DNA of 64,000 nucleotides, taken from an uncultured Eubacteriales bacterium (GTDB lineage: Bacteria > Bacillota > Clostridia > Christensenellales > Aristaeellaceae). The stretch covers positions 6,924-70,923 of the forward strand of contig CADBCY010000032.1 of NCBI GenBank assembly GCA_902793325.1, written 5' to 3'. Positions 3,285-54,726 of the stretch are shown here, piece by piece. Under the pieces are notes generated by a model. It saw nothing but the letters and a program-made list of their open reading frames with translations. It made no database searches and was not told the DNA's origin. A program made the translations under genes and the position numbers. How positions within the stretch are numbered: position 1 is the first letter of the stretch; every line of letters starts with the position of its first letter.

Positions 3285-3342
3285 CAGAATGCACCTCCAT
3301 CAATCCCCGAAGCAGCGGGGGTAAACACAGTTATACACATTT

Positions 3343-3351: not shown

Positions 3352-3420
3352 GCCCCGCCGTGGATTTTCATGGCTTTTTATTTTACTGTTTGTATCTTTT
3401 TTGTAACAGCTAAACGCGCG

Positions 3421-3457
3421 AAAAAGGGCCCGTGCCGGCGCACGCCGGCACGGACCC
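3421..3457 (-). terminator. rho-independent terminator of the second L,D-transpeptidase gene
   Basis: Minus strand reads GGGTCCGTGCCGGCG-tg-CGCCGGCACGGGCCC followed by TTTTT. It lies just downstream of the stop at 3474. Confidence 0.7.
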
Positions 3458-3473
3458 CCGAACGTATCCTTCG

Positions 3474-4895: not shown

Positions 4896-4916
4896 CTCAT
4901 ATCAAAACTAACGATT

Positions 4917-21979: not shown

Positions 21980-23089
21980 ATGACGAAGAAGCTGTTGGCG
22001 GCGCTGCTGGTGCTGGCGCTGCTGGCGGGGGCGTGCTCCGCGGCCATGGCGTCCGGGGACAGCATGCTGCTCGAATGGAACGGGTTTTCCGTGGAGTGGC
22101 TGCGCACCAGCCCCACGACCTACGCGAACGGCGACGTGGACATCACGTTCTACTGCCGATTCATCAACGGGACCCGCCACACGATGTGGCTGAAGGTGTC
22201 GGACGTCACGGTGGATGGCGTTCCCGTGGACGGCGTGGGCAAGACGAACATCGCCCCCGGCACGGACAGCGGCGCGGATTCGAGCGACTACATCTTCATC
22301 AAGCCCCTGGCGGACAGCCGGAGCGCCGGCGTGAACGCGCTGTGCAACGCGCGGAGCGTGGCCATGACGCTGACGCTGAAGGACAACGACACCTACGAGG
22401 AGTATTGCAGCCAGCGGGTCACGCTGTCGCTGACGAATGTGCCGAGCTTCACGCCCCGGGCGGGCGGCACGACGCCCCGGCCCACCTACGGCGGCACTTC
22501 CTACAGGGCGCTGGTGAAGGGCGACAGCGGCGAGGCCGTGCGCCGGATGCAGCAGCGCCTGATCGACCTGGGCTACCTGTACGACTCGGCGGACGGCAAG
22601 TTCGGTTCAAAGACCGCCGAGGCGGTGCGGGAGTTCTCCGGCGCGAACGGCCTGGGCGCCAGCGAGATCGCCACGCCGGAGATGCAGGAGAAGCTGTTCA
22701 GCAGCAGCGCCAAGGCCGTGCAGGAGCCCTGGGTGCCGCTGACGATCCGCGACGGCGCGAACGGCACCTGGATGAAGCTGAAGGGCGACAAGATCAAGTT
22801 CCGCGTGCAGGTGACCAACGTCTCCCGGAACCGGACGGTCAAGGCGTTCGAGATCTACATGTACGCGGTGGACGTGTGGGGCGACCGCATCTACGGCTCC
22901 GATACGGTCTACTACGGCACCACCACCAAGAAGGTGGCGCCGGGCAAGACGGTGTACTGCGATTACTTCGTCATGCCGAACCGCAGCCAGATCAACAAGG
23001 TCTACGTGGGCGTCAAGAAGGTGGTGTTCACGGACGGCACGATCCGCGAGAACAGCTCGGTGGACTACACGAGCTGGACGCTCAGCTGA
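21980..23089 (+). CDS. secreted hypothetical protein with a central peptidoglycan-binding domain
   Basis: 369 aa. Signal peptide MTKKLLAALLVLALLAGACSA. The central VRRMQQRLIDLGYLYDSADGKFGSKTAEAVREF is PG_binding_1-like. I do not recognise the flanking beta-rich regions. Confidence 0.65.
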   Translation: MTKKLLAALLVLALLAGACSAAMASGDSMLLEWNGFSVEWLRTSPTTYANGDVDITFYCRFINGTRHTMWLKVSDVTVDGVPVDGVGKTNIAPGTDSGADSSDYIFIKPLADSRSAGVNALCNARSVAMTLTLKDNDTYEEYCSQRVTLSLTNVPSFTPRAGGTTPRPTYGGTSYRALVKGDSGEAVRRMQQRLIDLGYLYDSADGKFGSKTAEAVREFSGANGLGASEIATPEMQEKLFSSSAKAVQEPWVPLTIRDGANGTWMKLKGDKIKFRVQVTNVSRNRTVKAFEIYMYAVDVWGDRIYGSDTVYYGTTTKKVAPGKTVYCDYFVMPNRSQINKVYVGVKKVVFTDGTIRENSSVDYTSWTLS

Positions 23090-23143
23090 CGCGGCGCGGC
23101 GGGGGAAGAATTCCCGGGGAAGCGGATTCGCGCGTTTTCCCGC

Positions 23144-23172
23144 TTGATTTTTCGGCGCATATCCGCTATCAT
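23144..23172 (+). promoter_or_regulatory. sigma-70-type promoter TTGATT-17-TATCAT for the plus-strand signalling operon
   Basis: TTGATTtttcggcgcatatccgcTATCAT, about 110 nt upstream of ATG 23286. Confidence 0.5.
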
Positions 23173-23285: not shown

Positions 23286-24767
23286 ATGTTGAACCGGGCG
23301 ATCTACGCAATGATCTATCTAGGCAGTGCTCTGATGGTCTACAACATCTATGACTTTGTCCGCTACACCCAGTACATCCAGGCCAGGAAGGACTGGGGCC
23401 GGGAGCGCGCCGTGCTCTACGTGCCCCTGGCACTGCTGGTCATGTTCCTGTTGGGTTACCTGGCCGTGAGCATCTTCGGCAAGCCGGACCTGATCGTGTC
23501 GGGCATCCTCTTCGGCGGGAGCATCTTCGTGTTCATCATCTTCAAGCTCCTGTGGCGCATCACCCACCACATTCAGGAGAACGAGCAGACGGAAGCGAAG
23601 CTGATGGCGGCGGAGGCCAGCAACAGGGCCAAGTCCAGCTTCCTGTCCAACATGAGCCACGAGATGCGCACCCCGATGAACGCCATCATCGGCCTGGACA
23701 ACATCGCGCTGCAGGACGAGACCCTGACGCCGCAGACGCGGGACCGGCTGCAGAAAATCGGCGTCAGCGCCCAGCACCTGATGGACCTGATCAACGACGT
23801 GCTGGACATGAACCTCATCGAATCGGGGCAGATGACGCTGAAGCACGAGCCGTTCTCCATGCGCGAGGCGCTTGGCCTGGTGGACCTGCTGCTCCAGTCC
23901 AGGTGCGACGAGAAGGGCCTGGAATACAAGAAAGAAGTGCTCGACGGGGTCGAGGAGGTGTACGTGGGCGACGCCCTCCGCCTCAGGCAGGTGCTGCTGA
24001 GCATCCTGGGGAACGCCGTGAAGTACACGCCCGCCCCCGGCACCGTGACCTTCACGACGGAGCAGGTCTCGGCCGCGGAGGACCGGCGCGAGCTGTGCTT
24101 CACCATCCGCGACACCGGCATCGGCATGGAGGAGGACTTCATCCCGCGGCTGTTCGATTCCTTCACCAAGGAGGACGCCGGCACCACCGACCGCTTCGGC
24201 GGGAGCGGGCTGGGGCTGGCGATCACGAAGCGGCTGGTGGACCAGATGGGCGGAACCATCGAGGTCCTAAGCCGCAAGGACGAGGGCAGCACGTTCGTCG
24301 TCACCCTCCCGCTCGGCGCGGCGAAGCCGCCGGAGGGATCCGCGGAGGAGCCTGCGCCGGAGTGCCTGCCCGACCTCGAGGGGCGGCGCGTGCTCATCGT
24401 CGAGGACATCGACCTGAACGCGGAGATCCTGGCGGACCTGCTGGAGATCGAGGGCGCCGAAACCGAGCGGGCGGAGAACGGGCAGATCGCCGTGGAGCAG
24501 TTTTCCAGCCATCCCGTGAACTACTACGACGCGATCCTGATGGATCTTCGAATGCCCGTGATGGACGGCATGGACGCCACCCGTGCGATCCGCGCGCTGG
24601 ACCGCCCGGACGCAAAGACGATCCCCATCGTCGCCCAGACCGCGAATGCCTACGAGGAAGACCTGCAGCATTCGCTGGAAGCCGGTATGAACGAACACCT
24701 GTCTAAGCCGCTGGACGCGGAACGGTTGTACGATACGCTGCGAAGGCTGATCGGAAAGCTGCGATGA
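23286..24767 (+). CDS. hybrid sensor histidine kinase (3 TM helices, HisKA, HATPase_c, receiver)
   Basis: 493 aa. H-box FLSNMSHEMRTPMNAIIG, N-box LGNAVKYT, G-boxes RDTGIGM and GGSGLGLAI. C-terminal receiver VLIVEDIDLN...ILMDLRMPVMDG...HLSKP. Confidence 0.92.
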   Translation: MLNRAIYAMIYLGSALMVYNIYDFVRYTQYIQARKDWGRERAVLYVPLALLVMFLLGYLAVSIFGKPDLIVSGILFGGSIFVFIIFKLLWRITHHIQENEQTEAKLMAAEASNRAKSSFLSNMSHEMRTPMNAIIGLDNIALQDETLTPQTRDRLQKIGVSAQHLMDLINDVLDMNLIESGQMTLKHEPFSMREALGLVDLLLQSRCDEKGLEYKKEVLDGVEEVYVGDALRLRQVLLSILGNAVKYTPAPGTVTFTTEQVSAAEDRRELCFTIRDTGIGMEEDFIPRLFDSFTKEDAGTTDRFGGSGLGLAITKRLVDQMGGTIEVLSRKDEGSTFVVTLPLGAAKPPEGSAEEPAPECLPDLEGRRVLIVEDIDLNAEILADLLEIEGAETERAENGQIAVEQFSSHPVNYYDAILMDLRMPVMDGMDATRAIRALDRPDAKTIPIVAQTANAYEEDLQHSLEAGMNEHLSKPLDAERLYDTLRRLIGKLR

Positions 24768-24819
24768 AGGACAGATATGGCGAGGAAGCGCGCCCGGATG
24801 AGGACAGGAGGAACGCGAA

Positions 24820-26517
24820 ATGATTATTTCCAATCAGCTGAGGAGACCGCGCCTGGTGCTGATTGTGGACGATCAGGAGATCAACCGCGACGTGCTGGGC
24901 ATGATCCTGGAAGATGATTACGAGATCATCTACGCCACCAACGGCAGGGAGGCCCTCGAGATGATCGAGGAGAACCTGGACCGCCTGTCGGTGGTGCTGC
25001 TGGATTTGATCATGCCGGAGATGGACGGCTTCAAGGTGCTCGACATCGTGCGCAACGACGAGTTCCTCAAGCGCATCCCGATCATCGTGCTGACGGCGGA
25101 GAAGAACGCCGAGCTTCGCGCGCTGCAGATGGGCGCGGCGGACTTCATCACCAAGCCCTTCGAGATGCACGAGGTCATCCTCGCGCGCGTGGGCAGGATC
25201 ATCGAGCTGAGCGAGGGCAGGCAGCTCATCTCCGCGGCGGAGCACGACCGGCTGACCATGCTCTACAGCAAGAGCTTCTTCTTCGAGTACGCCAACCGGA
25301 TCCACCAGTACCACCCCGAGTGGCACATGGACGCCGTGGTGATGGACATTAACCAGTTCCACACCATCAACGAGCTGAACGGCCGCGAGTTCGGCGACAA
25401 CGTGCTGCGCATCCTGGGCAACGAGATCCGCGCCTTCCTGGGCGAGACGGAGGGCATCGCCAGCCGCTTCGAGGCGGACCGCTTCGACCTGTACTGCATG
25501 CACCAGGCCGATTACCAGCAGTTGCTCGACCGCTTCCAGGAGAAGGTGAACACCCTCTCGCGCAACGCCAGCATCCGGCTGCGCATGGGCGTGAACCCCT
25601 GGCAGGAGGGCGTTGACCCGCTGCTGCTGTTCGACCGCGCCCGCGCGGCGTGCAACATGGTGCGGGGCGACTATAAGACGAACCTCATGGTGTACGACGA
25701 GGACATGCGCAACCACGAGCTTTTGAACCAGCGGCTGCTGAACGACTTGCAGCGCGCGGTGGACGAGCGCGAGTTCTGCGTGTTCTACCAGCCCAAGTTC
25801 AACGTCCAGTGCGACCCGCCGAAGCTGTCCAGCGCGGAGGCGCTGATCCGCTGGAAGCACCCGGAGCTGGGCATGATCTCCCCCGGCTGCTTCATCCCGC
25901 TGTTCGAGAGCAACGGCCAGATCGGCACCGTGGACAACTTCGTGTGGAACGAGGCGGCGCGGCAGATCGCCGACTGGCGCGATCGGCTGGGCGTGGTCGT
26001 GCCGGTGTCGGTGAACCTGTCCCGGGTGGACGTGTTCGACCCGGCGCTGGAGGACACGCTGACCGGCATCGTCGAACGAAACGGGCTGGACTACAAGAGC
26101 ATGAAGCTGGAGGTCACGGAGTCCGCCTACACCGACAACGCCGGGCAGATCATCGGGCTCATCAACCGCCTGCGCAGCATGGGCTTTGAAATCGAGATGG
26201 ACGACTTCGGCTCGGGCTATTCCTCGCTGAACATGCTCTCCTCCATGCCCATCGACGTGCTGAAGATGGACATGGAGTTCGTGCGGAACATCGAGCACAG
26301 CGAGAAGGACTTCCGCCTGGTGGAGGTCGTGCTGGACATCGCCAGGTACCTGAAGGTGCCGGTGGTGGCCGAGGGCGTGGAGACGCAGCGGCAGATGGAG
26401 CTGCTGCGCGATGCCGGCTGCCAGCTCGTGCAGGGCTATTACTTCTCCCGCCCGCTGCCGCCGGCGGACTTTGAAAAGCTGATACTCAGAGAAAAGGAGA
26501 TTGTGAGGGAGAACTGA
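24820..26517 (+). CDS. response regulator with receiver, degenerate GGDEF and EAL domains (predicted c-di-GMP phosphodiesterase)
   Basis: 565 aa. Receiver LVLIVDDQEINRD...LLDLIMPEMDGF...TKP. The GGDEF-position motif reads RFEADRF, so it is degenerate. EAL-domain blocks: YQPK, EALIRW, EVTES, DDFGSGYSSL, LKMD, EGVET, QGYYFSRP. Confidence 0.9.
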   Translation: MIISNQLRRPRLVLIVDDQEINRDVLGMILEDDYEIIYATNGREALEMIEENLDRLSVVLLDLIMPEMDGFKVLDIVRNDEFLKRIPIIVLTAEKNAELRALQMGAADFITKPFEMHEVILARVGRIIELSEGRQLISAAEHDRLTMLYSKSFFFEYANRIHQYHPEWHMDAVVMDINQFHTINELNGREFGDNVLRILGNEIRAFLGETEGIASRFEADRFDLYCMHQADYQQLLDRFQEKVNTLSRNASIRLRMGVNPWQEGVDPLLLFDRARAACNMVRGDYKTNLMVYDEDMRNHELLNQRLLNDLQRAVDEREFCVFYQPKFNVQCDPPKLSSAEALIRWKHPELGMISPGCFIPLFESNGQIGTVDNFVWNEAARQIADWRDRLGVVVPVSVNLSRVDVFDPALEDTLTGIVERNGLDYKSMKLEVTESAYTDNAGQIIGLINRLRSMGFEIEMDDFGSGYSSLNMLSSMPIDVLKMDMEFVRNIEHSEKDFRLVEVVLDIARYLKVPVVAEGVETQRQMELLRDAGCQLVQGYYFSRPLPPADFEKLILREKEIVREN

Positions 26518-26518
26518 C

Positions 26519-26887
26519 ATGACGATTCAGGAGCTGTATGCCAAGATCGGGGGCAACTACGATCAGGCCGTTCGGATCATGAAGTCGGAGCGGCTCATCG
26601 ACAAGTACGTGCGCAAGCTGAAGAGCAGCGGCGTGGGCGAAAAGCTGGCGGAGGCCGGCGAGTCGATGGACGCGGGCAAGCTGTTTGAGAGCGCGCACGC
26701 CATGAAGGGCGTCTGCTCCAACCTGGGGCTGGACGGCCTGGCCGGCGCCGCGGACGAGATCACCGAGGAATTCCGCCCCGGCAACCCGCGCAAGCTTTCG
26801 GACGAGGCGGTAAAGGAGAAGCTCCGGGACATCGACGAGCGCTATCGCGCCGCGGTGGAGGGCATCCGCCAGTACGAGGAAGGATAA
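26519..26887 (+). CDS. stand-alone Hpt (histidine phosphotransfer) protein
   Basis: 122 aa. SAHAMKGVCSNLGL fits the HxxKG phosphotransfer motif. ATG 26519 lies 1 nt after the stop of the preceding gene. Confidence 0.8.
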   Translation: MTIQELYAKIGGNYDQAVRIMKSERLIDKYVRKLKSSGVGEKLAEAGESMDAGKLFESAHAMKGVCSNLGLDGLAGAADEITEEFRPGNPRKLSDEAVKEKLRDIDERYRAAVEGIRQYEEG

Positions 26888-27024
26888 CAAACCCTATCTG
26901 AAAACAGTATATCCCCGGCTTTGAAAAGTTCGACGGAGCGCGTTCCCGATGGCGGGAAGGCGCGGTTCAGCATGGCGAGCGCGCGTCGCCGGGGCGTCGG
27001 CGCTCGGGAACGGGAAGGGATTTT

Positions 27025-30000
27025 ATGACGATGCGGACGGCGAAACAGGGGAACGAGGGCCTGTCGCGCTACCTGTCGCCCCTCGGCGCCTGGGCGCTTG
27101 CGTTTGGCTGCAGCGTGGGCTGGGGCGCCTTTGTCATGCCCGGCACCACGTTCCTGCCGGTCGCGGGGCCGATGGGCACGGTGCTGGGCATCGCCATCGG
27201 CGCGGTGATCATGCTGGTCATCGGCATGAACTTCCACTTCCTGATGAACCGCTACCCCGACGCCGGCGGCACCTACGCCTACGCCAAGTGCAACTTCGGC
27301 TACGACCACGGCTACCTCAACGCCTGGTTCCTGCTGCTGACCTACGTGGCCATCATCTGGGCGAACGCCACGGCGCTGCCGCTGATCGCGCGGCACCTGT
27401 TCGGCTCGCTGTTCCAGGTTGGCTGGCACTACGAGATCGCGGGCTACCAGATCTACATGGGCGAGGCGTTCCTGGCCATCGCCGCGCTGCTGGCCACCGG
27501 GCTTATCTGCCTGCGGGGCAAGGTGGCCGCCCGGGTGCAGATCCTGATGGCGCTGGTGCTGCTGGGCGGCATCGCGGTGTGCATCGTCGCGGCGGCGACG
27601 CACTCCCGGGGCGGGATGAACGCCGTCTCCCCGCCCTATGCGCCCGAGGGCGCACCGCTGGAGGGCGTGTTCACGATCGTCGCCCTCGCGCCGTGGGCGT
27701 ATGTGGGCTTTGAGTCCATCTCCCACTCCGCCGGCGAGCTCGACTTCTCCCTCAAGCGGAGCTTCCGCATCATGGCCGTCGCGGTCGTCACGGCCGCCGT
27801 GGCCTACGGCGCGCTGGCGCTGCTGGCCGTGACCGTGCTGCCGGAGGACTGCGCGAGCTGGACGGACTACATCTTCAACCTGGGCCGCTACGAGGGCATC
27901 CGGGGCCTGCCCACCTTCTTCTCCGCGGAGTCGCTGATGGGCACCGCGGGCGCCGTGGTGCTGGGGCTGACCACGCTGGGCGCGATCTTCACGGGCCTGG
28001 TGGGCAACACCGTGGCCTCCAGCCGCCTGCTCTACGCGCTGGCGCAGGACGACATGCTTCCCGCGTGGTTCGGGAAACTGAACCGGAATCGCGTGCCCTT
28101 CCACGCCGTGCTGTTCGTGACGGGCATTTCGGTGGTGCTGCCCTTCTTCGGCCGCACGGCCATCAGCTGGATCGTGGACGTGACCACCGTGGGCGCGACC
28201 ATCGCCTATGCCTACGCCTCCGCCGCGGCGCTGAAGGCCGCGCGCCGGGAGGGCGACCGGCTGGTGACGGCCACGGGCCTGGCGGGGCTGGTGATCTCCC
28301 TCGTCTTCGTGCTGTACTTCCTGATCCCCAACCTCATGGCGGTGAAGACGCTCTCCACCGAGTCGTACCTGATCCTGGCCGCGTGGGGCATCCTGGGCTT
28401 CCTGTTCTTCCTGTACCTGTTCCGCAGGGACGGCGAGCGCCGGCTGGGGCGGTCCCCGGTGGTGTGGGTGGTGCTGCTGGCGCTGATTATATTCACCTCC
28501 ACCATCTGGATGCGCCAGGCCACCGAGACCGCCACGGAGGAGGCCGTGACGCCCATCCATACGTTCTACAGGGAGCGCCTGGAGGAGGAGGGCGTGGACA
28601 TCGTGTCCATGGCCACCAAGCCCGCGGACAGCTACCTGCGCGAGGTGCTGGACGACGTGGGGGACCAGTTGACCCGCAACAGCCTGATCCAGACCGCGCT
28701 GATCGTGGTGGCGCTGGCGATACTGTTCTACATCTACTACCTGATGCAGAAGCGGGAGAAGCAGATCGAGGTAGAGAAGGCGCTGGCCGAGGAGAGCAGC
28801 CGCGCCAAGACCAGCTTCCTGTCCAACATGAGCCATGAGATCCGCACGCCGATGAACGCCATCATCGGCCTGGACAACATCGCGCTGAAGGACCCGGACC
28901 TGTCGCCGCACACGCGCGAGCAGCTGGAGAAGATCGGCTCCAGCGCCAGGCACCTGCTGGGGCTCATCAACGACATCCTGGACATGAGCCGCATCGAGTC
29001 CGGGCGCATGGTGCTCAAGAGCGAGGAGTTCAGCTTCCGCGATTTCCTGGACCAGATCAACGTGATGATCAACGGCCAGTGCGCGGACAAGGGGCTCGAT
29101 TTCGATTGCCACATCATCGGCCGGGTGAACGACTATTACATCGGCGACGACATGAAGCTCAAGCAGGTGATGATCAACATTCTGGGCAACGCCGTCAAGT
29201 TCACCCCGGTGCCCGGCACGATCACCTTCACGGTGGAGCAGATCGCGGAGTTCGAGGAGTACTGCACGCTGCGGTTCATCATGAAGGACACCGGCATCGG
29301 CATGAGCAAGGAGTACATCCCGAAGATCTTCGAGGCATTCTCCCAGGAGAACAACGGCGCCGCGAACCGGTACGGCAGCACGGGCCTGGGCATGGCCATC
29401 ACGAAGAACATCGTGGAGATGATGAACGGCGAGATCGCGGTGGAGAGCGAGAAGGGCGTGGGCACCGCGTTCACCGTCACCGTGACGCTGAAGGCCTCCG
29501 CGCGCAGCGTGCACATGGAGCACGGGCACGTGCTGCCCAAGGGCCTGCGCGTGCTGGTGGTGGACGACGACGAGATCGCCTGCGAGCACGCCAGGCTGGT
29601 CGCGGGCAACATCGGCATCGAGGCGGAGGCCGTGCAGAGCGGCAGGGAAGCGCTCGAGCGCATCGCGTCGGTGCGCAACCAGGGCTGCCCCTTCGACTTC
29701 GTGCTGACCGACTACAAAATGCCCGGCATGGACGGCATTGAGCTGACGCGGGCCATTCGCGCCTTCGACGGCGGCGAGACGGCCGTCATCGTGCTGACCG
29801 GCTATAGCTGGGACGACATGCAGGCCGAGGCCCGGGAGGCGGGCGTGGACGGCATCATGTCCAAGCCGCTGTTCACGGAAAGCCTGCTCCGCGAAATCCG
29901 CGGCATACTGGAGCGGCGCGAGTCCGTCGCCAACCCCGACCTGGTGACGGAGAAGCTTCCGGAGCCTCCGGCGAACGCGCTGGCGGGCCTTCGCATGCTG

Positions 30001-30411
30001 ATCGCGGAGGACATGGAGATCAACGCGGACATCCTGATGGACCTGCTGGAGATGGAGGGCATGGTCACCGAGCACGCGGAGAACGGGCAGGTCGCGGTGG
30101 AGATGTTCGCGGCCAACCCCGCGGGCTACTACGACGCGGTGCTGATGGACGTGCGCATGCCGGTGATGGACGGCCTCGAGGCCACCCGCGCCATCCGCGG
30201 GCTGGACCGGCCGGACGCCGGGACGGTGCCCATCATCGCCATGACGGCCAACGCCTTCGACGAGGACGTTCAGCGCTCCCTGCAGGCGGGCATGTCGGCG
30301 CACCTGACGAAGCCCGTGGAGCCGGAGCGGCTCTACGATACCCTGAGGAGACTGGTTTGCACCGCCGGGGAAACCGATCCGGCGGGGAAGGAGGAAGGCG
30401 CGGCGCCGTGA
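27025..30411 (+). CDS. APC-family amino-acid-permease-like domain fused to a hybrid histidine kinase with two receiver domains
   Basis: 1128 aa. About the first 480 aa form a polytopic transporter fold (AFGCSVGWGAFVMPG..., YPDAGGTYAYA, about 12 hydrophobic spans). Then H-box FLSNMSHEIRTPMNAIIG, N-box LGNAVKFT, and KDTGIGM/GSTGLGMAI. Receiver 1 is VLVVDDDEI...LTDYKMPGMDG...SKP. Receiver 2 is MLIAEDMEIN...LMDVRMPVMDG...HLTKP. Confidence 0.88.
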   Translation: MTMRTAKQGNEGLSRYLSPLGAWALAFGCSVGWGAFVMPGTTFLPVAGPMGTVLGIAIGAVIMLVIGMNFHFLMNRYPDAGGTYAYAKCNFGYDHGYLNAWFLLLTYVAIIWANATALPLIARHLFGSLFQVGWHYEIAGYQIYMGEAFLAIAALLATGLICLRGKVAARVQILMALVLLGGIAVCIVAAATHSRGGMNAVSPPYAPEGAPLEGVFTIVALAPWAYVGFESISHSAGELDFSLKRSFRIMAVAVVTAAVAYGALALLAVTVLPEDCASWTDYIFNLGRYEGIRGLPTFFSAESLMGTAGAVVLGLTTLGAIFTGLVGNTVASSRLLYALAQDDMLPAWFGKLNRNRVPFHAVLFVTGISVVLPFFGRTAISWIVDVTTVGATIAYAYASAAALKAARREGDRLVTATGLAGLVISLVFVLYFLIPNLMAVKTLSTESYLILAAWGILGFLFFLYLFRRDGERRLGRSPVVWVVLLALIIFTSTIWMRQATETATEEAVTPIHTFYRERLEEEGVDIVSMATKPADSYLREVLDDVGDQLTRNSLIQTALIVVALAILFYIYYLMQKREKQIEVEKALAEESSRAKTSFLSNMSHEIRTPMNAIIGLDNIALKDPDLSPHTREQLEKIGSSARHLLGLINDILDMSRIESGRMVLKSEEFSFRDFLDQINVMINGQCADKGLDFDCHIIGRVNDYYIGDDMKLKQVMINILGNAVKFTPVPGTITFTVEQIAEFEEYCTLRFIMKDTGIGMSKEYIPKIFEAFSQENNGAANRYGSTGLGMAITKNIVEMMNGEIAVESEKGVGTAFTVTVTLKASARSVHMEHGHVLPKGLRVLVVDDDEIACEHARLVAGNIGIEAEAVQSGREALERIASVRNQGCPFDFVLTDYKMPGMDGIELTRAIRAFDGGETAVIVLTGYSWDDMQAEAREAGVDGIMSKPLFTESLLREIRGILERRESVANPDLVTEKLPEPPANALAGLRMLIAEDMEINADILMDLLEMEGMVTEHAENGQVAVEMFAANPAGYYDAVLMDVRMPVMDGLEATRAIRGLDRPDAGTVPIIAMTANAFDEDVQRSLQAGMSAHLTKPVEPERLYDTLRRLVCTAGETDPAGKEEGAAP

Positions 30412-30450
30412 GCGCGCGCGTGCGATAAACGAGAAGTGGAGGGCGGCACC

Positions 30451-31317
30451 ATGACAGAGACGACGATCGCGCGAAACCTGGGCATCATGTACGCGGAGGA
30501 GAGCGGCAGCGGGCTGCTGCATCCGTTCTTCGCCCTGATCCTGAACGCATTCAAGAGCGAGGCCGAGGCCCATGGCTACGACATCACGTTCATCAACGGG
30601 ACCGGCGAGTGGGAAGCCGGGAGCTATGCCGAGCACTGTCGGCAGCGCGGCGTGGACGGCCTGTGCATCGTCTGCGCGGACTACGCGGACCCGCGGATCA
30701 AGGCGCTGGCCACCTGCGGCATGCCCTGCGTCACCGTGGATCACATCTTCAAGGGCGTGCCCGCGGTGCTGTCGGACAACGAGACGGGCATGCAGAAGCT
30801 GGTGGAGTTCGCCATCTCGAAGGGCCACCGCCGCATCGCGTTCGTGCACGGGCACAACAACTCCATCGTCACGCGCACGCGCATCGGCCAGTTCAAGAAC
30901 ACCATGGCGTACCACGAGCTGCCCGTGACCCCGGACGACGTGGTCGACGGGCTGTACCACGACATCGCGCTCACGCGCAAGCTCGTCGGCGAGCTGCTGC
31001 GCCGGCCCGACCGGCCCACCTGCATCATACTGCCGGACGACATGTGCTTCCTCGGCGCGCAGGAAGCGGCGCGCGTGCTGGGGCTGCGCATTCCCGAGGA
31101 CATCTCCTTCGGCGGCTACGACGGCATCCCCATGACGCAGGCGCTCTCGCCCAGGCTGACCACCATTCGCCAGAGCTGCGTGGACATGGGCAAGGTGGCC
31201 GCACAGCGGCTGATCGACCGGATCGAGCGCCCCGAAACCGCCTCCAACAAGCCCAACATCTTCCCGGTGGAGCTGCTCGAGGGCGGCACGATCGCCCCGC
31301 CGGGAGGCGCATCCTAA
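30451..31317 (+). CDS. LacI/PBP-type sugar-binding domain protein lacking the N-terminal HTH
   Basis: 288 aa from ATG 30451 (GGAGGG 7 nt upstream; the track uses GTG 30436). Typical LacI core blocks are present (GHRRIAFV..., ...GYDGIPMTQALSPRLTTIRQ). Only 40 nt separate it from the upstream stop, which leaves no room for a DNA-binding domain. Confidence 0.75.
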   Translation: MTETTIARNLGIMYAEESGSGLLHPFFALILNAFKSEAEAHGYDITFINGTGEWEAGSYAEHCRQRGVDGLCIVCADYADPRIKALATCGMPCVTVDHIFKGVPAVLSDNETGMQKLVEFAISKGHRRIAFVHGHNNSIVTRTRIGQFKNTMAYHELPVTPDDVVDGLYHDIALTRKLVGELLRRPDRPTCIILPDDMCFLGAQEAARVLGLRIPEDISFGGYDGIPMTQALSPRLTTIRQSCVDMGKVAAQRLIDRIERPETASNKPNIFPVELLEGGTIAPPGGAS

Positions 31318-31335
31318 CATATGTCAGCATAATAC

Positions 31336-31369
31336 AAGACCACCGGCTGGACCGGTGGTCTTATGTTTT
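31336..31369. terminator. hairpin terminator shared by the two convergent signalling operons
   Basis: AAGACCACCGG-ctgga-CCGGTGGTCTT followed by ATGTTTTG. Confidence 0.7.
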
Positions 31370-31403
31370 GCTACGCCCGCGCGGGGCCGAGGGGTTGGCT
31401 TTC

Positions 31404-33155
31404 TCATGCCCGGGGGCCGCTTTGGAGCTGCCGCGCGAGCTCCCCTTCCAGCGTTTCGCCCCGGACGGGCTTGGACAGGTAGCCGTCGAAGCCCTCCTGC
31501 AGGCACAGCCTTTCCATCTCCGCGCCGACGTTCGCGGTCAGGCAGACGACCCTGCTGTCCCGGCACAGGCCGCCCGCCTGCGCCCGGATCCGGTGCAGGC
31601 ACTCGACGCCGTCCATCTCCGGCATCTGGTGGTCCATCAGGATCACGTCGTAGCGCGTTTCCAGCGTCTTTTGCAGCGCTTCGGCGCCGCTGGCGGCGGT
31701 GTCGACGGCCACCTTCGTGTCCCGGAGCAGCTTCTTCACCACCATCAGGTTCATCGGCGTGTCGTCCACCGCCAGCACGCGCGCGTCCTGCGCGACGAAC
31801 GCGCTGTCGCGGCTGGCCTCCGGCGTCCGCGCGCGCCTGCCCAGATCGACCGCGCCGACCGGCCGCGCGTCCGCGACGCCCTGCGGGATCTCGATGTGGA
31901 AGACCGTGCCCTTCCCGTACACGCTCTCGACGCGCACGCTGCCGCCCATCATGTCCAGCAGCTGCTTCACGATCGACAGTCCCAGGCCCGTGCCCTCGAT
32001 GTGGTGCGTCTTCTGCGCGTCTGCGCGGTGAAAGGCGGTGAACAGGTGGGGGATGTCCTCCTCGCGGATGCCGATGCCCGTGTCGGCGACGTCGTACAGC
32101 GCGGTGAAGCCGCCGTCGGCGTCCGTGCGCCCGGCGATGGACAGCGTGACCGAGCCCTCCCGCGTGTACTTCACCGCGTTGGTGATCACGTTGAGCAGGA
32201 TCTGCTTGACGTGCATTTCGTCCCCGCGCAGCGCGGTGGGGAGCGCGAGATCGACCTCGACGCGGAATTCGAGCCCCTTCTCCTGCGCGCGCAGCCAGAC
32301 CATGCTCACGATGTCGGACAGTATCGCGGTGGTGGCGTAGTCGGCGGACACGATCTCCATGCTGCCCGTCTCCAGCCGGGACAGGTCCAGGATCTCGTTG
32401 ATGGTGTGCAGCAGCGTCTTGCCGGCCACCTCGATGTTGCGCGCGTTCTCCAGCACCTCGTCGGGGAGCGGTTCGCGCAGCGTCATCTCATTCAGGCCGA
32501 TGATGGCGTTCACGGGCGTGCGGATCTCGTGGCTCATGCTGGAGAAGAAGCGCTTCTGCGCGCCGTTCAGCTCCTCGATCTCCTTCTTCTGCTTTTGCAC
32601 GATGCGGTTTTCGGTGCGGTACACCCCGGTGACGAACGCGAACAGCGTGCACAGCAGCAGCGCGACCAGCAGGATCGACAGGAACGATTCGACCTGCTCG
32701 GCCTGCGCCGTGTGCCGGACCAGCAGCCCCGGGCGCAGGTACGACAGCGCGTAGCACGCGCCGGTGAACGCGACGCACAGCGCCATCGTCGCCGCGCGCG
32801 CCCAGCCCTCCGTCGCCAGGAACACGTAGACCAGCGCGAAGGCGAACACCACCGGCGCGCCGCCGTACATCCCGCCGGAGGAGAAGAACGTCAGCGGGTA
32901 CATCAGGAAGTAGAGCAGCCCCGAAACCGCCGAGCCCGCGCGCATCCTTCCGCTCCTGAACGTGAGCGCCACCGTCGCGGCGAAGGCCACGGTGCCCGCC
33001 AGCATCAGCGCGATGTGGCCCGCGCTGCCGCCGAAGAGGATCGTGTAGGCGGAGACCAGCACGAATTCCGCCAGCGCGATCGTCGACAGCAGTTGGAACA
33101 GCCGCGCCCGCAGGCTGACCTCCGGGTCCAGCATGCGTTTCATCCTGTGCTTCAT
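31404..33155 (-). CDS. hybrid sensor histidine kinase (multi-TM N-terminus, HisKA, HATPase_c, receiver)
   Basis: ORF 31404..33521 trimmed to MKHRMKRML (ATG 33155). About 6 hydrophobic spans. H-box FFSSMSHEIRTPVNAIIG, N-box ITNAVKYT, ADTGIGI, GTGLGLSI. Receiver VLAVDDTPMN...LMDHQMPEMDG...YLSKP. Confidence 0.9.
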   Translation of the reverse strand: MKHRMKRMLDPEVSLRARLFQLLSTIALAEFVLVSAYTILFGGSAGHIALMLAGTVAFAATVALTFRSGRMRAGSAVSGLLYFLMYPLTFFSSGGMYGGAPVVFAFALVYVFLATEGWARAATMALCVAFTGACYALSYLRPGLLVRHTAQAEQVESFLSILLVALLLCTLFAFVTGVYRTENRIVQKQKKEIEELNGAQKRFFSSMSHEIRTPVNAIIGLNEMTLREPLPDEVLENARNIEVAGKTLLHTINEILDLSRLETGSMEIVSADYATTAILSDIVSMVWLRAQEKGLEFRVEVDLALPTALRGDEMHVKQILLNVITNAVKYTREGSVTLSIAGRTDADGGFTALYDVADTGIGIREEDIPHLFTAFHRADAQKTHHIEGTGLGLSIVKQLLDMMGGSVRVESVYGKGTVFHIEIPQGVADARPVGAVDLGRRARTPEASRDSAFVAQDARVLAVDDTPMNLMVVKKLLRDTKVAVDTAASGAEALQKTLETRYDVILMDHQMPEMDGVECLHRIRAQAGGLCRDSRVVCLTANVGAEMERLCLQEGFDGYLSKPVRGETLEGELARQLQSGPRA

Positions 33156-33169
33156 GCGCGCGCCCCCCG

Positions 33170-33529
33170 TCAGTCCAGCGCGGCGCGCACCGCGCCGACC
33201 AGCGCCCCCAGGTCCGCCAGGAAGGCGCCGTGGGCGGCGAGCACGGCGTCCGCGTCGCCGGCCTTCGCGGCGTCTTCCAGCGCCTTCGCGCGCTGCGACA
33301 GCGCCGTCGCGCCGATCGTGCGCGAGGTGCTCTTGAGGGAATGCGCGCGGATGCGATAGTTGTCCCAGTCCCGCGCCGCGCAGAACCGCTCCAGCTCCCC
33401 GAGCTTCGCCGCGGCGTCGCGCACGAATTCGCCGAGCATCTCCGCGTAGAATTCCCCATCCTCCGCGCAGCAGGCCATGCCCGCCCCGGTGTCGATGCCG
33501 CAGGCCCGCAGCCGATCCCAATTCAGCAC
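33170..33529 (-). CDS. stand-alone Hpt (histidine phosphotransfer) protein
   Basis: In frame with ORF 33170..33793. GTG 33529 is preceded by GGAGG and overlaps the upstream stop (GTGCTGA). RAHSLKSTSRTIGA fits the HxxKG motif. Confidence 0.75.
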   Translation of the reverse strand: MLNWDRLRACGIDTGAGMACCAEDGEFYAEMLGEFVRDAAAKLGELERFCAARDWDNYRIRAHSLKSTSRTIGATALSQRAKALEDAAKAGDADAVLAAHGAFLADLGALVGAVRAALD

Positions 33530-34539
33530 GTTCCGTCCTCCCTCATTCGGTAGTCCCCGTCCTCGTCGATCATCTTCAGCATGATGGCGGCAAAGCGGGG
33601 GTCGAGCTGGCTGCCCGCGCAGCGCTCGATCTCCGCGCGGACGTGCGCCTGCGGCAGCGCCTGGCGGTAGCTGCGGTTGCTCGTCATGGCGTCGTAGGTG
33701 TCCGCGACGGCGATGATCCGCGCGACCTCCGGGATGTCCTCCCCGGCGAGACCGTCGGGGTAGCCGCGCCCGTCGTAGCGCTCGTGGTGCCACCGCGCCC
33801 CGATCACAAGCTCCGGGAAATCGGTGATGTTCTTCAGGATGTCCGACCCGACGGCGGGGTGCGTCTTGATCTGCGCGTACTCCTCGTCGGTCAGGCGGCC
33901 GTTTTTGTTGATGATGGCGTCCTGCACGCCGATCTTGCCCACGTCGTGCAAGAGGCCCATCATGTAGACCCGCTCCTGCCCGGCGTCGCTGAAGCCCGCG
34001 CGCCGGGCGATTTCCCGGGCGTAGACCGCGACGCGCGCGGAATGGCCGTGGGTGTACTTGTCCTTGGCGTCCACGGAGGCCGCCAGCGCCTGCACGATCT
34101 GCAGCCAGGCGCGCGACAGCTTCTCCGTCTTTGCGCGGATCTCGCGGGCCATGTCGACGTGCAGGCGGTTGAGCTCGATGATGTTGCCCACGCGCTTGAG
34201 CAGCACCTCCGCCGCGAACGGCTTGCGGATGAAGTCCGACGCCCCCGCCTGCAGGCCCTCGCTCTCGGTTCGCACGTCCTCGTCGCCCGTCAGGAAGGCG
34301 ACGGGCACGTTCCGGAAGCGCGCGTCCGTGCGCAGCCGCTTCAGCAGGTCGATGCCGTTGGCGTCCGGCATGTGCACGTCCAGCAGGATCAGGTCGGGGG
34401 GATCGGCCCCGTCCGGGCGCGCGAACAGCTCCCCGCCGGAGGTGCAGTATTCGCCCTCGATCCCGGCCCGGTCAAACACCCGCCTGGCGATGCGCAGGCT
34501 CATGGCGTCGTCATCGACGACGATGATTCTGGTCTTCAC
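33523..34539 (-). CDS. response regulator with receiver and HD-GYP domains (predicted c-di-GMP phosphodiesterase, RpfG-like)
   Basis: Receiver IIVVDDDAMS...LLDVHMPDANG...RKP. HD-GYP blocks HGHSARVAVYA, LLHDVGKIGV and HHERYDGRGYPDGL. I prefer GTG 34539 (GGGAG upstream) over the track ATG 34569, which has no RBS. Confidence 0.9.
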   Translation of the reverse strand: MKTRIIVVDDDAMSLRIARRVFDRAGIEGEYCTSGGELFARPDGADPPDLILLDVHMPDANGIDLLKRLRTDARFRNVPVAFLTGDEDVRTESEGLQAGASDFIRKPFAAEVLLKRVGNIIELNRLHVDMAREIRAKTEKLSRAWLQIVQALAASVDAKDKYTHGHSARVAVYAREIARRAGFSDAGQERVYMMGLLHDVGKIGVQDAIINKNGRLTDEEYAQIKTHPAVGSDILKNITDFPELVIGARWHHERYDGRGYPDGLAGEDIPEVARIIAVADTYDAMTSNRSYRQALPQAHVRAEIERCAGSQLDPRFAAIMLKMIDEDGDYRMREDGTC

Positions 34540-34589
34540 GTTCGCTCCCAGCCTTTCCGGTTGCCGCATGCGCGGGGTCGCAGGGGATG

Positions 34590-34844
34590 TCAGTACAGCT
34601 CCTTCAGCACCAGCACCGTGATGCCGGGGTTGTCGCCGGGCAGGATGCGCAGCACCTTCGGGTGCCAGCGGTATTCGTCCCGGATCATCGCGCGCAGGCT
34701 GGTGCCGCGGTGGTAGCCGTGGATCAGTTGCAATTGATAGGTCATCGGCCCGGCGCCGGCGAGGGCGCGGTCGATCACCCGGATGGCCTCCTCCTGCCGG
34801 AGGCCGTGCAGGTCGACCTTCACAAACGGTTCATTCATGCGCAT
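34590..34844 (-). CDS. Smr (small MutS-related) domain protein
   Basis: 84 aa, MRMNEPFVKVDLHGLRQEEAIRVIDRAL...LQLIHGYHRG. This is the C-terminal segment of the otherwise junk ORF 34590..35705. Confidence 0.7.
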   Translation of the reverse strand: MRMNEPFVKVDLHGLRQEEAIRVIDRALAGAGPMTYQLQLIHGYHRGTSLRAMIRDEYRWHPKVLRILPGDNPGITVLVLKELY

Positions 34845-34852
34845 CGCCCCCG

Positions 34853-35713
34853 TCAGCAGTTTCCGGTGTACACGTATTTCAGGCTCTCCCGCGCGACGTC
34901 GGCGAGGCGGTAGACGCGGCGCACGTCCGTCGCCGGGCGGTCGGTCATGTGAAAGCGCGGGAAGAAGCGCGAGATGTGCAGCGGGATGTCCCCGCCGATG
35001 CGCCGGCCGTCCGTATCCTCCAGCCCCGCGACCCAGTCCGCCAGCGCGCGCATTTCGTCCTCGGAATCGTTCTCGCCGGGCACGACCAGCGTGGTCAGCT
35101 CCACGTGGCAGCGCTGCGCGGCCCGGGCGACGAACGCCTTCACCATGCCGAGGCTGCCGCCCAGCACGCGCGCATAGTAGCGGTCGGTGAAGCCCTTGAG
35201 GTCGATGTTCATGGCGTCGATGTACGGCGCGAGGGCCTCCAGCACGTGAAGCTCCGCCGTGCCGTTGGTGACCAGCGCGTTCACAAGCCCCGCTTCCCGG
35301 GCCAGCTTCGCCGCGTCGCGCACGTATTCCCAGCCGACCAGCGGCTCGTTGTAGGTGAACGCCAGCCCGATGTTGCCGCGGGGCTTCAGGCGGACCGCCG
35401 CCCGCACCAGCGCTTCCGGGGAGACGCTCTCGGCGCGCCCGGCGAGGCGCATGGCCTCCGGCGACCAGGAGATTTCGTGGTTCTGGCAGAAGGGGCAGCG
35501 CAGGTTGCAGCCGTAGCTGCCCGCCGAGAGGATCATGCTCCCGGGGTGGAAGCGCCGCAGCGGCTTCTTCTCGACGGGGTCCAGCGCCAGCGCGGTGATC
35601 CGGCCGTAATTCTCCGCGACCACCCTGCCGTCCGCGCACGCGCGCGCGCCGCAGAAGCCCCGGCGGCCTTCGGGGATGTCGCAGTGGTGGAAGCAAACGT
35701 CGCAACGGGCCAT
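34853..35713 (-). CDS. amrS: AmmeMemoRadiSam system radical SAM enzyme
   Basis: 286 aa. N-terminal Cys-rich MARCDVCFHHCDIPEGRRGFCGAR and radical SAM CxxxCxxC motif GCNLRCPFCQNHEIS. PFL-activase-like fold. Adjacent to an AMMECR1-domain gene. Confidence 0.85.
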   Translation of the reverse strand: MARCDVCFHHCDIPEGRRGFCGARACADGRVVAENYGRITALALDPVEKKPLRRFHPGSMILSAGSYGCNLRCPFCQNHEISWSPEAMRLAGRAESVSPEALVRAAVRLKPRGNIGLAFTYNEPLVGWEYVRDAAKLAREAGLVNALVTNGTAELHVLEALAPYIDAMNIDLKGFTDRYYARVLGGSLGMVKAFVARAAQRCHVELTTLVVPGENDSEDEMRALADWVAGLEDTDGRRIGGDIPLHISRFFPRFHMTDRPATDVRRVYRLADVARESLKYVYTGNC

Positions 35714-35756
35714 ATCGCGTCCTCCGCAGGGTCGGGACGGGGTGGGAAAGGGTCGG

Positions 35757-37151
35757 TCAAGTGTGTCGGACGACCTCGAAGCGCTGCAATTCGACCTTCT
35801 CGTGCGGGCCGATGCCGGCCTTGCGGCGGGCGATGTCCACCTGCTGCGCCACGGTATCCACGCCGTCCAGGTCCGGCAGCAGCAGTCCCCGGCGGTGGCC
35901 CCGGGTCACGATCACGCCGTAGCGCTTCACGTCGAGCTGGGCCTCGGAGGCGATGGGCTCCGGTTCCCCCAGCACGTCCACGTGGATCTCCAGCCACTTG
36001 AGCTCGTCGGGGCGGATGGGGTCGAAGCGCGGGTCGCGAGAGGCGGCGCTGACGGCGTTGCAGACGATCTCCTCCGCCAGGCTGTCCTGCGTGGGCGAGA
36101 TGGTGCCGATGCAGCCGCGCAGCCGGCCCTGCTTGTGGATGGACACGAACGCGCCCGCCCGCTGCGCGCGCAGCGCCTCTGGCAGGTCGTCGGGGACGCG
36201 CGCCCGTTCGTGGCGGAGCACCCAGGATTCCACCGACTGCCACGCCAGCCGCACCCACGGGTCGCAGCGGCCGCGCGCCTCGGCGAGCTGCGTTTCCTGC
36301 GCCCGGAGGCGTTGGTCCAGGAAGCGGCGGCGGTCGTCGCGCGCGCCGGGGCGGAAGGCGCAGACGCCGTAGCCCACGCCGGTGACGTCCTCGTGGGAGA
36401 ACGCCTCCGCCGCCACGGCCGTGCCGTCCAGCGCGCCGGCCATCATCACGAAGGACCGGTGGCCGCACTCCGCCGCGCGCTCGCAGAAGGCCTCGTCGAA
36501 GTCGAACAGCTCCCCGAACGCCGCGCGGCCGCAGACGTCCATGATCCGCGCGTCGTACTGCGGGCCCTCCGGCGCGAAGCCGTAGGGGCCGTAGTCCCGC
36601 AGCTTGTGGGAGAGGTCGCCGCTGGCCACGAACACCGCCCGGTGCCCGGTCTCCTCAACCGCCCGCCGGACGAGCTGCCCCAGCCGGTAGTGATCCTCCA
36701 GCGGCAGCCCGGACAGCCCGATCCGCACCAGGCGGAACGCGGAATATGCCTGCCGGATGAAGTACAGCGGCACCATCGTGCCGTGATCCAGCGCGGGGTC
36801 GCGCGCTCCGCGGGTGCCCGCGGGCAGGTTTTCGGCGATCGCCAGGCGCTCGACGGCCGCGACCAGCTCCGCGTCGTAGGACTCCCGGAAGCGCACCTGC
36901 GGCGCCCGGAAGCGCTCGAAGGAGCCCTCCGCGCCGCGGCCGGGGGAGATGTGGAAGTAGTCCGCGTACATCGTGGCGTGCGGGCTGGAGAGGATGACCG
37001 TCTCCGGCGCCAGCGCCGCGATCTCGCGCGCCACGCGGGCGTAGGCCGCGCGCGTGGCCTCGATCTGCGCCTCGCCGCCGCGGCCCACCTCGGGCACGAT
37101 CATCGGCGGGTGGGGCACCATGTAAGCAGCCAGTATGGGCATGGCGATCAC
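35757..37151 (-). CDS. fusion of a class III extradiol dioxygenase/Memo-like domain with an AMMECR1 domain (AmmeMemoRadiSam system protein A type)
   Basis: 464 aa. The N-terminal half (AAYMVPHPPMIVPEVG...) is LigB/Memo-superfamily-like. The C-terminal half GAFVSIHKQGRLRGCIGT...RDPRF...YGVIVTRGHRRGLLLPDL is the AMMECR1 signature. Confidence 0.85.
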   Translation of the reverse strand: MIAMPILAAYMVPHPPMIVPEVGRGGEAQIEATRAAYARVAREIAALAPETVILSSPHATMYADYFHISPGRGAEGSFERFRAPQVRFRESYDAELVAAVERLAIAENLPAGTRGARDPALDHGTMVPLYFIRQAYSAFRLVRIGLSGLPLEDHYRLGQLVRRAVEETGHRAVFVASGDLSHKLRDYGPYGFAPEGPQYDARIMDVCGRAAFGELFDFDEAFCERAAECGHRSFVMMAGALDGTAVAAEAFSHEDVTGVGYGVCAFRPGARDDRRRFLDQRLRAQETQLAEARGRCDPWVRLAWQSVESWVLRHERARVPDDLPEALRAQRAGAFVSIHKQGRLRGCIGTISPTQDSLAEEIVCNAVSAASRDPRFDPIRPDELKWLEIHVDVLGEPEPIASEAQLDVKRYGVIVTRGHRRGLLLPDLDGVDTVAQQVDIARRKAGIGPHEKVELQRFEVVRHT

Positions 37152-37436
37152 CTCTCCTTTGCGCGCATGCGCCGCGCTTTCCCGCAGAAGGCACGACAGC
37201 GTGTCCGCGATAATTATACCACAGACGCGCGGCGGACGCCAGATGTTTTCCGACGAACGTCGGCTTTTTGTCCGACCGGGTGTCGATCCGGTCGATTTCG
37301 CGCGCGATTCCCGGATAAACCGCGAATGAGTCCTTGCGGCGCGGGCGCAAATATGCTACTACGTAGGAAAAGGACTGTCATCGCACGATCCGCGACCCAC
37401 TGAAGAAGAAACGCCGCCGTCCAGAGGCGCCTTGCC

Positions 37437-39064: not shown

Positions 39065-39102
39065 TCCGCCGAACATCCGGCGCACAAATCAGCGGCTTTT
39101 TT
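39059..39102 (+). terminator. probable terminator after the kinase relic
   Basis: CGCTGAT...ATCAGCG stem with a 22-nt loop, followed by GCTTTTTT. Confidence 0.45.
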
Positions 39103-39177
39103 CACAGCCCCCGCAAAGGTATGAATTGAAATTTGAAGCTTTGCGCCGACCCTTCTCTGCCCTCTGCAGCATGCTGA

Positions 39178-54695: not shown

Positions 54696-54726
54696 CGTAC
54701 ACAGCTCAAGCGGAGCGTGCCACGGA

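Follow-up and report, generated by a model that had tools for sequence, protein, structure and literature searches.

This locus raises the question of whether two signalling operons that run into each other from opposite strands form one circuit or two. It lies in a stretch of 64,000 nucleotides from an uncultured Eubacteriales bacterium (the window; GenBank assembly GCA_902793325.1, contig CADBCY010000032.1, positions 6,924 to 70,923), in which a plus-strand operon of five genes (HK1, RGE, Hpt1, the APC-kinase and PBP) and a minus-strand operon of three (REC-HD-GYP, Hpt2 and HK3) end at the same hairpin (Table 1). A preliminary description of this DNA had interpreted the two arms as a mirrored duplication and as a cross-wired, multi-input circuit of 11 kb that lowers cyclic di-GMP (c-di-GMP). 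Our analysis speaks against both ideas. We consider it likely that the region consists of two independent, separately inherited phosphorelay cassettes that converge by chance on one terminator.

Gene content and separate conservation of the two arms

The eight genes, their coordinates and domains, and the terminator common to both operons were borne out by Pfam, with all domain calls above the curated thresholds, and by independent gene calls on a rumen metagenome scaffold identical to the window (ENA ERZ28614149, STEW19-1 scaffold_637). As to start sites, the HK3 reading frame extends to a TTG at 33521 while the actual start is the ATG at 33155, REC-HD-GYP begins at 34569 (ATG) or 34539 (GTG), and the GTG start of Hpt2 overlaps the stop codon of the REC-HD-GYP gene upstream. 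Profile-HMM scans of the eight proteins supported both Hpt calls, and alignments to solved relatives supported the catalytic residues of the EAL and HD-GYP domains. The phosphorylatable His is present in both Hpt proteins and the phospho-acceptor Asp in all six receivers, which in alignment to CheY retain D12/D13, D57, T87 and K109 (CheY numbering) throughout. Domains and residues together uphold the view that each arm carries a full His-Asp-His-Asp set and a phosphodiesterase-type output of a different superfamily, and it is credible from these features that each arm is a relay ending in a cyclic-dinucleotide phosphodiesterase. The label 'Clostridia-like' held as well: the relatives are metagenome-assembled genomes (MAGs) of rumen Clostridia and Christensenellaceae, despite a window G+C content of about 65%.

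What did not hold is the duplication. Hpt1 and Hpt2 share no similarity detectable by BLASTP (nothing better than E = 9), and the kinase core of HK3 is only 33-34% identical to the cores of HK1 and the APC-kinase. With Hpt proteins unrelated in sequence and HK3 belonging to a distant kinase lineage, a mirrored duplication is ruled out.

Conservation of the arms was judged in two independent synteny surveys, one seeded with the APC-kinase and the other with HK3, in which co-occurrence was read from the flanking sequence of each locus. The first covered contigs of species-representative genomes, which gave 78 loci, plus three contexts from exact-protein look-ups; its counts refer to the 25 loci in which the permease is at least 50% identical to that of the window. 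The second covered metagenome contigs and three exact-protein look-ups, and comprises 24 loci whose HK3 sensor has an identity of 60% or more. Of the 25 permease-selected loci, 21 have Hpt1 directly upstream of the APC-kinase; among the 21 APC-kinase loci with enough upstream flank, 14 have the complete set of HK1, RGE and Hpt1. The genes flanking this core vary between loci, and the trio of APC-kinase, RGE and Hpt is kept despite a changed gene order in three of them (L038, L050, L073). Hpt2 and the HD-GYP gene, for their part, accompany HK3 in 14 of the 15 loci whose upstream flank is long enough, and the neighbourhoods of these loci are unrelated. The plus-arm core (HK1, the REC-GGDEF-EAL protein RGE with its degenerate GGDEF, Hpt1 and the APC-kinase) and the minus-arm set (REC-HD-GYP, Hpt2 and the six-helix kinase) are each a separate, strongly conserved cassette in rumen metagenomes.

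The two cassettes do not travel together. No HK3 or HD-GYP gene was found near the APC-kinase in the loci with at least 4.5 kb of downstream sequence (0/16), and no plus arm near HK3 in the loci with enough downstream flank (0/12). We therefore take the convergent arrangement to be, most plausibly, a neighbourhood that arose by chance; co-conservation, on which the cross-wired 11-kb circuit had been staked, is lacking for the arm pair, and the block as a conserved unit is ruled out by both surveys. Chance adjacency is plausible since EAL-type genes are dense in this genome, as seen from a third EAL gene in the window (at 61434) and from convergent EAL genes in relatives: in four close relatives, the gene converging on the LacI-type PBP gene is an unrelated EAL-containing open reading frame (EAL-PAS-GGDEF-PAS in L003, the one scanned). 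In genomes this rich in c-di-GMP genes, adjacent signalling cassettes should not be taken for circuits without evidence of co-conservation.

Table 1. Features of the two convergent operons and of the block upstream of the HD-GYP gene (positions in the window)
Feature	Position	Strand	Remarks
Terminator-like hairpin of the gene preceding HK1	23115-23142		just 5' of the promoter-like site
Promoter-like site upstream of HK1	23144-23172	+	consensus match only
HK1, hybrid histidine kinase	23286-24767	+	HisKA / HATPase_c / REC (Pfam)
RGE	24820-26517	+	REC / GGDEF (degenerate, EADRF) / EAL; EAL E = 4e-64 (Pfam)
Hpt1, stand-alone	26519-26887	+	Pfam Hpt 30.5 bits (cut-off 24.6)
APC-kinase, 1128 aa	27025-30411	+	AA_permease_2 97 bits, then HisKA / HATPase_c / two REC
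PBP, 288 aa, LacI/PurR/RbsR-type ligand-binding domain	30451-31317	+	Peripla_BP_1/3
GC-rich hairpin between the convergent operons	31336-31362		11-bp stem, 5-nt loop; T-run after it on the + strand
HK3	31404-33155	-	six transmembrane helices, then HisKA / HATPase_c / REC (Pfam)
Hpt2, 119 aa, stand-alone	33170-33529	-	Pfam Hpt 45 bits, E = 1e-11
REC-HD-GYP response regulator	33523-34569	-	HD_5 112 bits (Pfam)
Small Smr-like open reading frame, 84 aa	34590-34844	-	upstream of the HD-GYP gene
Radical-SAM gene	34853-35713	-	AmmeMemoRadiSam-type set
LigB/Memo-AMMECR1 fusion	35757-37151	-	AmmeMemoRadiSam-type set

The plus arm and its permease-fused kinase

The APC-kinase is the most unusual part of the region. 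In an AlphaFold2 (AF2) model (predicted local distance difference test score, pLDDT, 78) it starts with a permease of 12 transmembrane (TM) helices in the APC/LeuT fold, followed by TM13, an outside helical hairpin of about 55 residues and TM14, which extends as a single helix into the DHp domain, the site of His604. The CA domain and two receivers, REC1 (Asp896) and REC2 (Asp1042), complete the cytoplasmic part. His604 is invariant in homologues, and the phospho-acceptor residues of REC1 are all kept and likewise invariant. The Pfam score for AA_permease_2 is 97 bits against a cut-off of 27, and Foldseek placed the permease core close to AdiC, BasC and GkApcT (TM-scores 0.78-0.83), with ShkA as the best match of the cytoplasmic part (residues 590-1115) and GacS and RetS as further ones. 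A Pfam scan found AA_permease families only between the N-terminus and the kinase, and no STAC or other linker domain. More than 100 full-length homologues exist at 62-79% identity, nearly all of them unnamed or labelled 'amino acid permease'.

Is this permease a sensor? Many of its residues in TM1, TM3, TM6 and TM8 are invariant among 40 homologues, and the substrate-site motifs GWG (TM1) and PWAxVGFE (TM6) are equally conserved in fused and unfused members of the clade, from which it follows that the solute site is under selection. We read the permease domain as a solute-sensing, and possibly still transporting, input module. Alternatively, it could be a pure receptor that no longer transports, as in yeast Ssy1, or a mere membrane anchor that senses no solute. 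No named transporter subfamily could be assigned, as all NCBIfam matches fall far below their cut-offs (the best, BcaP, with 65 bits against 690), and most clade members, judged from the best 150 of 422 clusters, are fused to signalling domains; both observations would suit a domain without transport function. However, the permease is under strong purifying selection, its substrate-site motifs are the same whether or not a signalling domain is attached, and a protein that merely held the kinase in the membrane would have no need of a conserved LeuT fold of 12 TM helices. On balance, we regard the receptor-or-anchor alternative as unlikely.

An exhaustive search with residues 1-590 delimited a permease clade of 422 clusters at E <= 1e-30. 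Among the best 150 cluster representatives, a kinase core is present in 64, of which 46 have a receiver as well; 21 have only a GGDEF domain and 4 an EAL domain, while 50 are of permease length. Pfam verified direct APC-GGDEF and APC-GGDEF-REC-GGDEF-EAL fusions. Several loci encode APC-GGDEF proteins of 730-765 aa (L025:14617-16911; L063:6924-9176; L096:1943-4138, minus strand), and a 1342-aa APC-GGDEF-REC-GGDEF-EAL protein is encoded directly downstream of an APC-kinase elsewhere (L015:13375-17403, plus strand).

The APC-kinase itself occurs in MAGs, most of those listed being from ruminant guts, whose assignments are Clostridia, Christensenellaceae, Oscillospiraceae, Erysipelotrichaceae, Negativicutes, Chloroflexi (Flexilinea, Leptolinea) and Succinivibrionaceae. 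Its operon was found at 60-66% identity in four Chloroflexi-assigned MAGs (L008, L010, L007, L086), and in reordered form at 44% identity in a MAG of the gammaproteobacterial Succinivibrionaceae (L038). This spread over phyla suggests either habitat-bound horizontal transfer in the rumen or binning error. Our tentative proposal, which we hold at somewhat less than even confidence, is that the permease represents an undescribed, horizontally spread clade of 'transceptors' wired to c-di-GMP, either through a hybrid-kinase/Hpt/REC-EAL relay or through fusion to GGDEF or EAL domains, such that nutrient uptake or binding in the rumen would set c-di-GMP levels. More weakly still, we would add that EAL- and HD-GYP-type outputs might be coupled via one Hpt in some genomes, the candidates being the window and locus L096.

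The second kinase of the arm, HK1, is a small membrane-anchored protein with 2-3 TM helices and without an extracytoplasmic domain; in most related operons the N-terminal part has an identity of 49-69%. HK1 is closely paralogous to the APC-kinase, with cores 45% identical and the HK1 receiver 67% identical to REC2 of the APC-kinase. Here the multi-input idea of the preliminary description survives in part: within the plus arm, two paralogous kinases are conserved together with a single Hpt and a single REC-EAL protein, whereas across the arms the idea is not borne out. This four-gene core is compact enough to be of use in studying multi-input phosphorelays in Firmicutes.

Between the two kinase genes lie those of Hpt1, whose phosphorylatable His (in AHAMKGV) is invariant in 27 homologues, and of RGE. 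The EAL domain of RGE aligns with that of MorA (4rnh) at E = 7.5e-65, and RocR (3sy8) is among its solved relatives. All motifs (EAL, N, ExxE, DDFGSGYSS, K, EGVE and QG) are present in the MorA alignment, and 24 homologues have them either unchanged or with conservative substitutions. The GGDEF motif, on the other hand, reads EADRF in RGE and takes an E[AGS]DRF-like form in most of the 24, with GG(D/E)EF restored in none; motif alignments thus corroborate a degenerate GGDEF beside an intact EAL site, and likewise the intact HD-GYP site of the other arm. Reading the sequence by eye, we saw that the motif has no RxxD I-site upstream of it and that the positions contacting guanine are altered too. 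A diguanylate cyclase function of RGE is ruled out by the motif, and its GGDEF domain is, as read from this conservation, a non-catalytic module. We predict that RGE is the plus arm's output, a c-di-GMP phosphodiesterase under the control of phosphorylation.

The last gene of the operon, PBP, follows the APC-kinase gene after a gap of 39 bp and is confined to the closest relatives (64-74% identity). Its product aligns only to positions ~71-323 of PurR/RbsR, and neither a helix-turn-helix (HTH) nor a signal peptide was found in it. We considered two other identities for PBP. It is not a LacI-family transcription factor, as it consists of the ligand-binding domain alone and has no N-terminal HTH, and a truncated repressor pseudogene is ruled out by the occurrence of the same HTH-less form, at 64-74% identity and in the same position, in nine related loci. 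We regard it as a putative cytoplasmic co-sensor.

Put together, the plus arm might work as follows. An amino-acid-like or amine solute would signal to the APC-kinase by binding to, or transport through, its permease, and a second membrane signal would reach HK1. Each kinase would autophosphorylate on its H-box His and pass the phosphoryl group to its own receiver, which in the APC-kinase is probably REC2, while REC1, itself a bona fide receiver, may serve as a phosphate sink or regulator. From the two paralogous receivers, phosphate would flow via Hpt1 to the receiver of RGE, and phosphorylated RGE would switch on c-di-GMP hydrolysis; where present, the LacI-type PBP may add a cytoplasmic ligand input. 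For both arms, it is from domain logic and from the conservation of the operons that we infer which proteins exchange phosphate and in which direction, that phosphorylation activates the phosphodiesterases, and what the ligands are.

The minus arm, the question of a single circuit and the surroundings

HK3 has a membrane-embedded sensor of six TM helices, the last of which runs on into the DHp helix (with His209), followed by CA and REC (AF2 model, pLDDT 80). His209 is invariant in homologues, of which there are more than 100 at 66-81% identity. Pfam, NCBIfam and Foldseek gave no match beyond the kinase core, so that the six-helix sensor has no family in these resources; ShkA is the best structural match of the cytoplasmic part (Foldseek). 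The phosphorylatable His of Hpt2 (in AHSLKSTS) is invariant in 8 homologues. The REC-HD-GYP protein, whose HD-GYP domain is 76-83% identical in related cassettes, has intact LLHDVGK and HHERYDGRGYP motifs aligned with those of V-cGAP3 and PmGH, and is predicted to be a phosphorylation-controlled cyclic-dinucleotide phosphodiesterase and the output of this arm. In the proposed sequence of events, the six-helix domain of HK3 would sense a membrane-embedded signal and pass it via Hpt2 to the HD-GYP enzyme.

Could the arms nevertheless act as one circuit, with all three kinases feeding both Hpt proteins and both phosphodiesterases, and the 11-kb block as a unit? The arms are adjacent and share a terminator, and the APC-kinase of the window is carried by three contigs in the same neighbourhood (two of them grouped as having mostly the same neighbouring proteins). 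Several observations also weigh against the independence that we favour. The partners have been assigned from operon structure alone. Besides, in locus L096 (1943-11737), an HD-GYP/Hpt2/HK3 cassette stands head-to-head with a module whose products are a REC-REC hybrid kinase, an APC-GGDEF protein and a REC-GGDEF-EAL-GGDEF protein. A profile search found no Hpt1-type gene in that locus, and its sole Hpt is of the Hpt2 type, so that in some genomes EAL and HD-GYP outputs may depend on a common Hpt. Moreover, an additional hybrid kinase and a sensor-GGDEF-REC-GGDEF protein are often found in related cassettes, where it is common for several kinases and REC outputs to be grouped around a single Hpt. 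Proteins of the Hpt1/Hpt2 kind thus probably serve several partners, which is why we keep the cross-wired model as a minority rival. However, the pairing recurs in neither survey, each arm has its own complete set of kinase, Hpt and REC, the arms are convergent and not co-transcribed, and dissimilar Hpt proteins together with a distant HK3 lineage are the pattern expected of insulated pathways. Weighing these points, we find a single circuit improbable and retain the reading of two independent cassettes.

A separate doubt concerns the second messenger of the minus arm. Among solved HD-GYP structures, V-cGAP3 of Vibrio cholerae (5z7c; 4.7e-43) ranks well ahead of PmGH (4mcw; 1.9e-32) and PA4781 (4r8z; 4.3e-27). 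Because V-cGAP3, the best solved relative, is a phosphodiesterase for 3'3'-cGAMP (cyclic GMP-AMP), we only infer c-di-GMP as the substrate. The HD-GYP arm might instead control 3'3'-cGAMP, or both cyclic dinucleotides, in which case the arms would act on different second messengers. Yet rank among a handful of solved proteins is a weak guide to substrate, nothing resembling a cGAMP synthase was seen in the window, and in two of the three related contexts whose gene lists were inspected the cassette directly follows a sensor-GGDEF-REC-GGDEF protein, which points to c-di-GMP. We therefore give the cGAMP alternative little credence. As for a metagenome assembly chimera joined at the hairpin, it is highly improbable: although the window comes from a metagenome scaffold, its pairing of arms is unique and the G+C content climbs from 0.64-0.66 to 0.68-0.70 in the stretch from ~30 kb to 38 kb, the identical APC-kinase is found on three contigs, the other two of which were grouped as having mostly the same neighbouring proteins, and the G+C shift is modest and inside the range of other window genes.

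The same compositional feature can be described more broadly. From 30000 to 38000 the G+C content is 0.68-0.70, against 0.62-0.66 on either side, and G+C at the first and second codon positions (GC1 and GC2) is higher in the minus-strand block than in the plus-arm genes; the stretch may be a separately acquired segment. Upstream of the HD-GYP gene, the minus-strand block 34590-37151 has gaps of 43, 8 and 20 bp, and its genes may be co-transcribed with the HD-GYP gene in the window. The Smr-like, radical-SAM and LigB-AMMECR1 genes are absent from related HD-GYP cassettes. In relatives, large sensor-GGDEF-REC-GGDEF proteins with SBP_bac_3 or PAS inputs are encoded directly upstream of both kinds of cassette (L080:607-3516; L083/L084:4310-6580; L085:3070-6168), which suggests that one relay often drives cyclase and phosphodiesterase outputs together. 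No such gene lies next to either arm in the window.

Elsewhere in the window, a third c-di-GMP gene (61434-63998, plus strand) encodes a PAS-GGDEF-EAL protein and runs off the end, and a 439-aa protein (37810-39129, plus strand) shows a weak dCache_1 match without a recognised output domain. A hexuronate-type sugar-acid cluster (52891-61143) comprises a TRAP transporter (DctM, DctP), a KDPG aldolase, a reductase of the mannitol-dehydrogenase family, an altronate/galactarate dehydratase and a PfkB kinase. Two L,D-transpeptidases (YkuD) with three PG_binding_1 repeats each are encoded at 1845-4901 on the minus strand, and another PG_binding_1 protein (21980-23089, plus strand) directly upstream of HK1 is not conserved beside the operon in relatives. 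As partners of the relays, the AmmeMemoRadiSam, peptidoglycan-binding and hexuronate genes were ruled out, as they travel with neither cassette. An Rfam scan of the whole window, covering c-di-GMP riboswitches among others, gave no matches.

Comparison with known systems

Both relays are of known kinds, the minus one resembling RpfC/RpfG and the plus one resembling RocR, PdeR and RavR. In the RpfC/RpfG system of Xanthomonas, a hybrid kinase signals through an Hpt domain, fused to the kinase in RpfC, to a REC-HD-GYP protein. The minus arm shares with it the membrane-embedded multi-TM kinase with its own receiver, the Hpt step and the REC-HD-GYP output. It differs in that Hpt2 is a separate protein, in that its six-helix sensor matches no sequence family and its host is a rumen Clostridia-type bacterium, and in that no gene for a synthase of the diffusible signal factor (DSF) lies nearby. 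A published paper on RpfC is PMC5391125.

Kinase-controlled regulators of the REC-(GGDEF)-EAL type include RocS1/RocR, VieS/VieA, PdeK/PdeR and RavS/RavR (PMC6707612), as well as CfcA/CfcR (PMC6849547) and CdgKA/CdgSHA of Anabaena (bioRxiv 10.64898/2026.09.11.750938). In these systems, as predicted for the plus arm, a domain that metabolises c-di-GMP is controlled through the phosphorylation of a receiver; hybrid kinases and Hpt steps occur in some of them. The plus arm departs from them by its two paralogous hybrid kinases, its stand-alone Hpt, a GGDEF domain that is degenerate family-wide and a transporter domain as the sensor of one kinase. Phosphorelays controlling c-di-GMP phosphodiesterases are thus already well known, and the two-arm layout adds little to them.

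What the region adds lies in the APC-kinase. Its order of domains, DHp-CA-REC1-REC2, is that of ShkA (6qrj) of Caulobacter, in which REC1 is a pseudo-receiver that binds c-di-GMP; in contrast, REC1 of the APC-kinase keeps its phospho-acceptor residues, and ShkA is soluble. Permeases of the APC family act as sensors in the LysP-CadC system of Escherichia coli and, with Ssy1 or Gap1, in yeast, where permease and signalling protein are separate polypeptides. The APC-kinase likewise uses an APC-family amino-acid permease as its sensing element, but here the permease and the signalling parts form one chain.

The closest parallel to such a fusion is provided by CbrA and CrbS, 'transceptors' composed of an SLC5 transporter, a STAC domain and a kinase, which have been described as rare (PMC13022988, PMC5715377, PMC11109136). 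In the literature we found only these SLC5 kinases and the eukaryotic permease sensors, which is no proof that APC-kinase or APC-GGDEF fusions are undescribed. The APC-kinase shares with CbrA and CrbS a LeuT-fold secondary transporter covalently joined to a histidine kinase, and CrbS is likewise a hybrid kinase. Unlike them, it has an APC-family amino-acid permease (TC 2.A.3 type) in place of SLC5, and, with no STAC found, the DHp helix is reached directly by way of two additional TM helices and a helical hairpin on the outside. Its predicted output is c-di-GMP hydrolysis via an Hpt relay and not an NtrC-type regulator, and its permease clade also has members joined directly to GGDEF and EAL domains. 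The APC-kinase is a new variation on the CbrA-type idea of a transporter-kinase and belongs to a rumen family, abundant and strongly conserved, whose amino-acid-permease fold would serve as the sensor of hybrid kinases or GGDEF/EAL enzymes. Such a permease-sensor clade would broaden a concept that now rests on CbrA/CrbS to the APC family, and would tie nutrient uptake directly to decisions of the biofilm or motility type in gut anaerobes.

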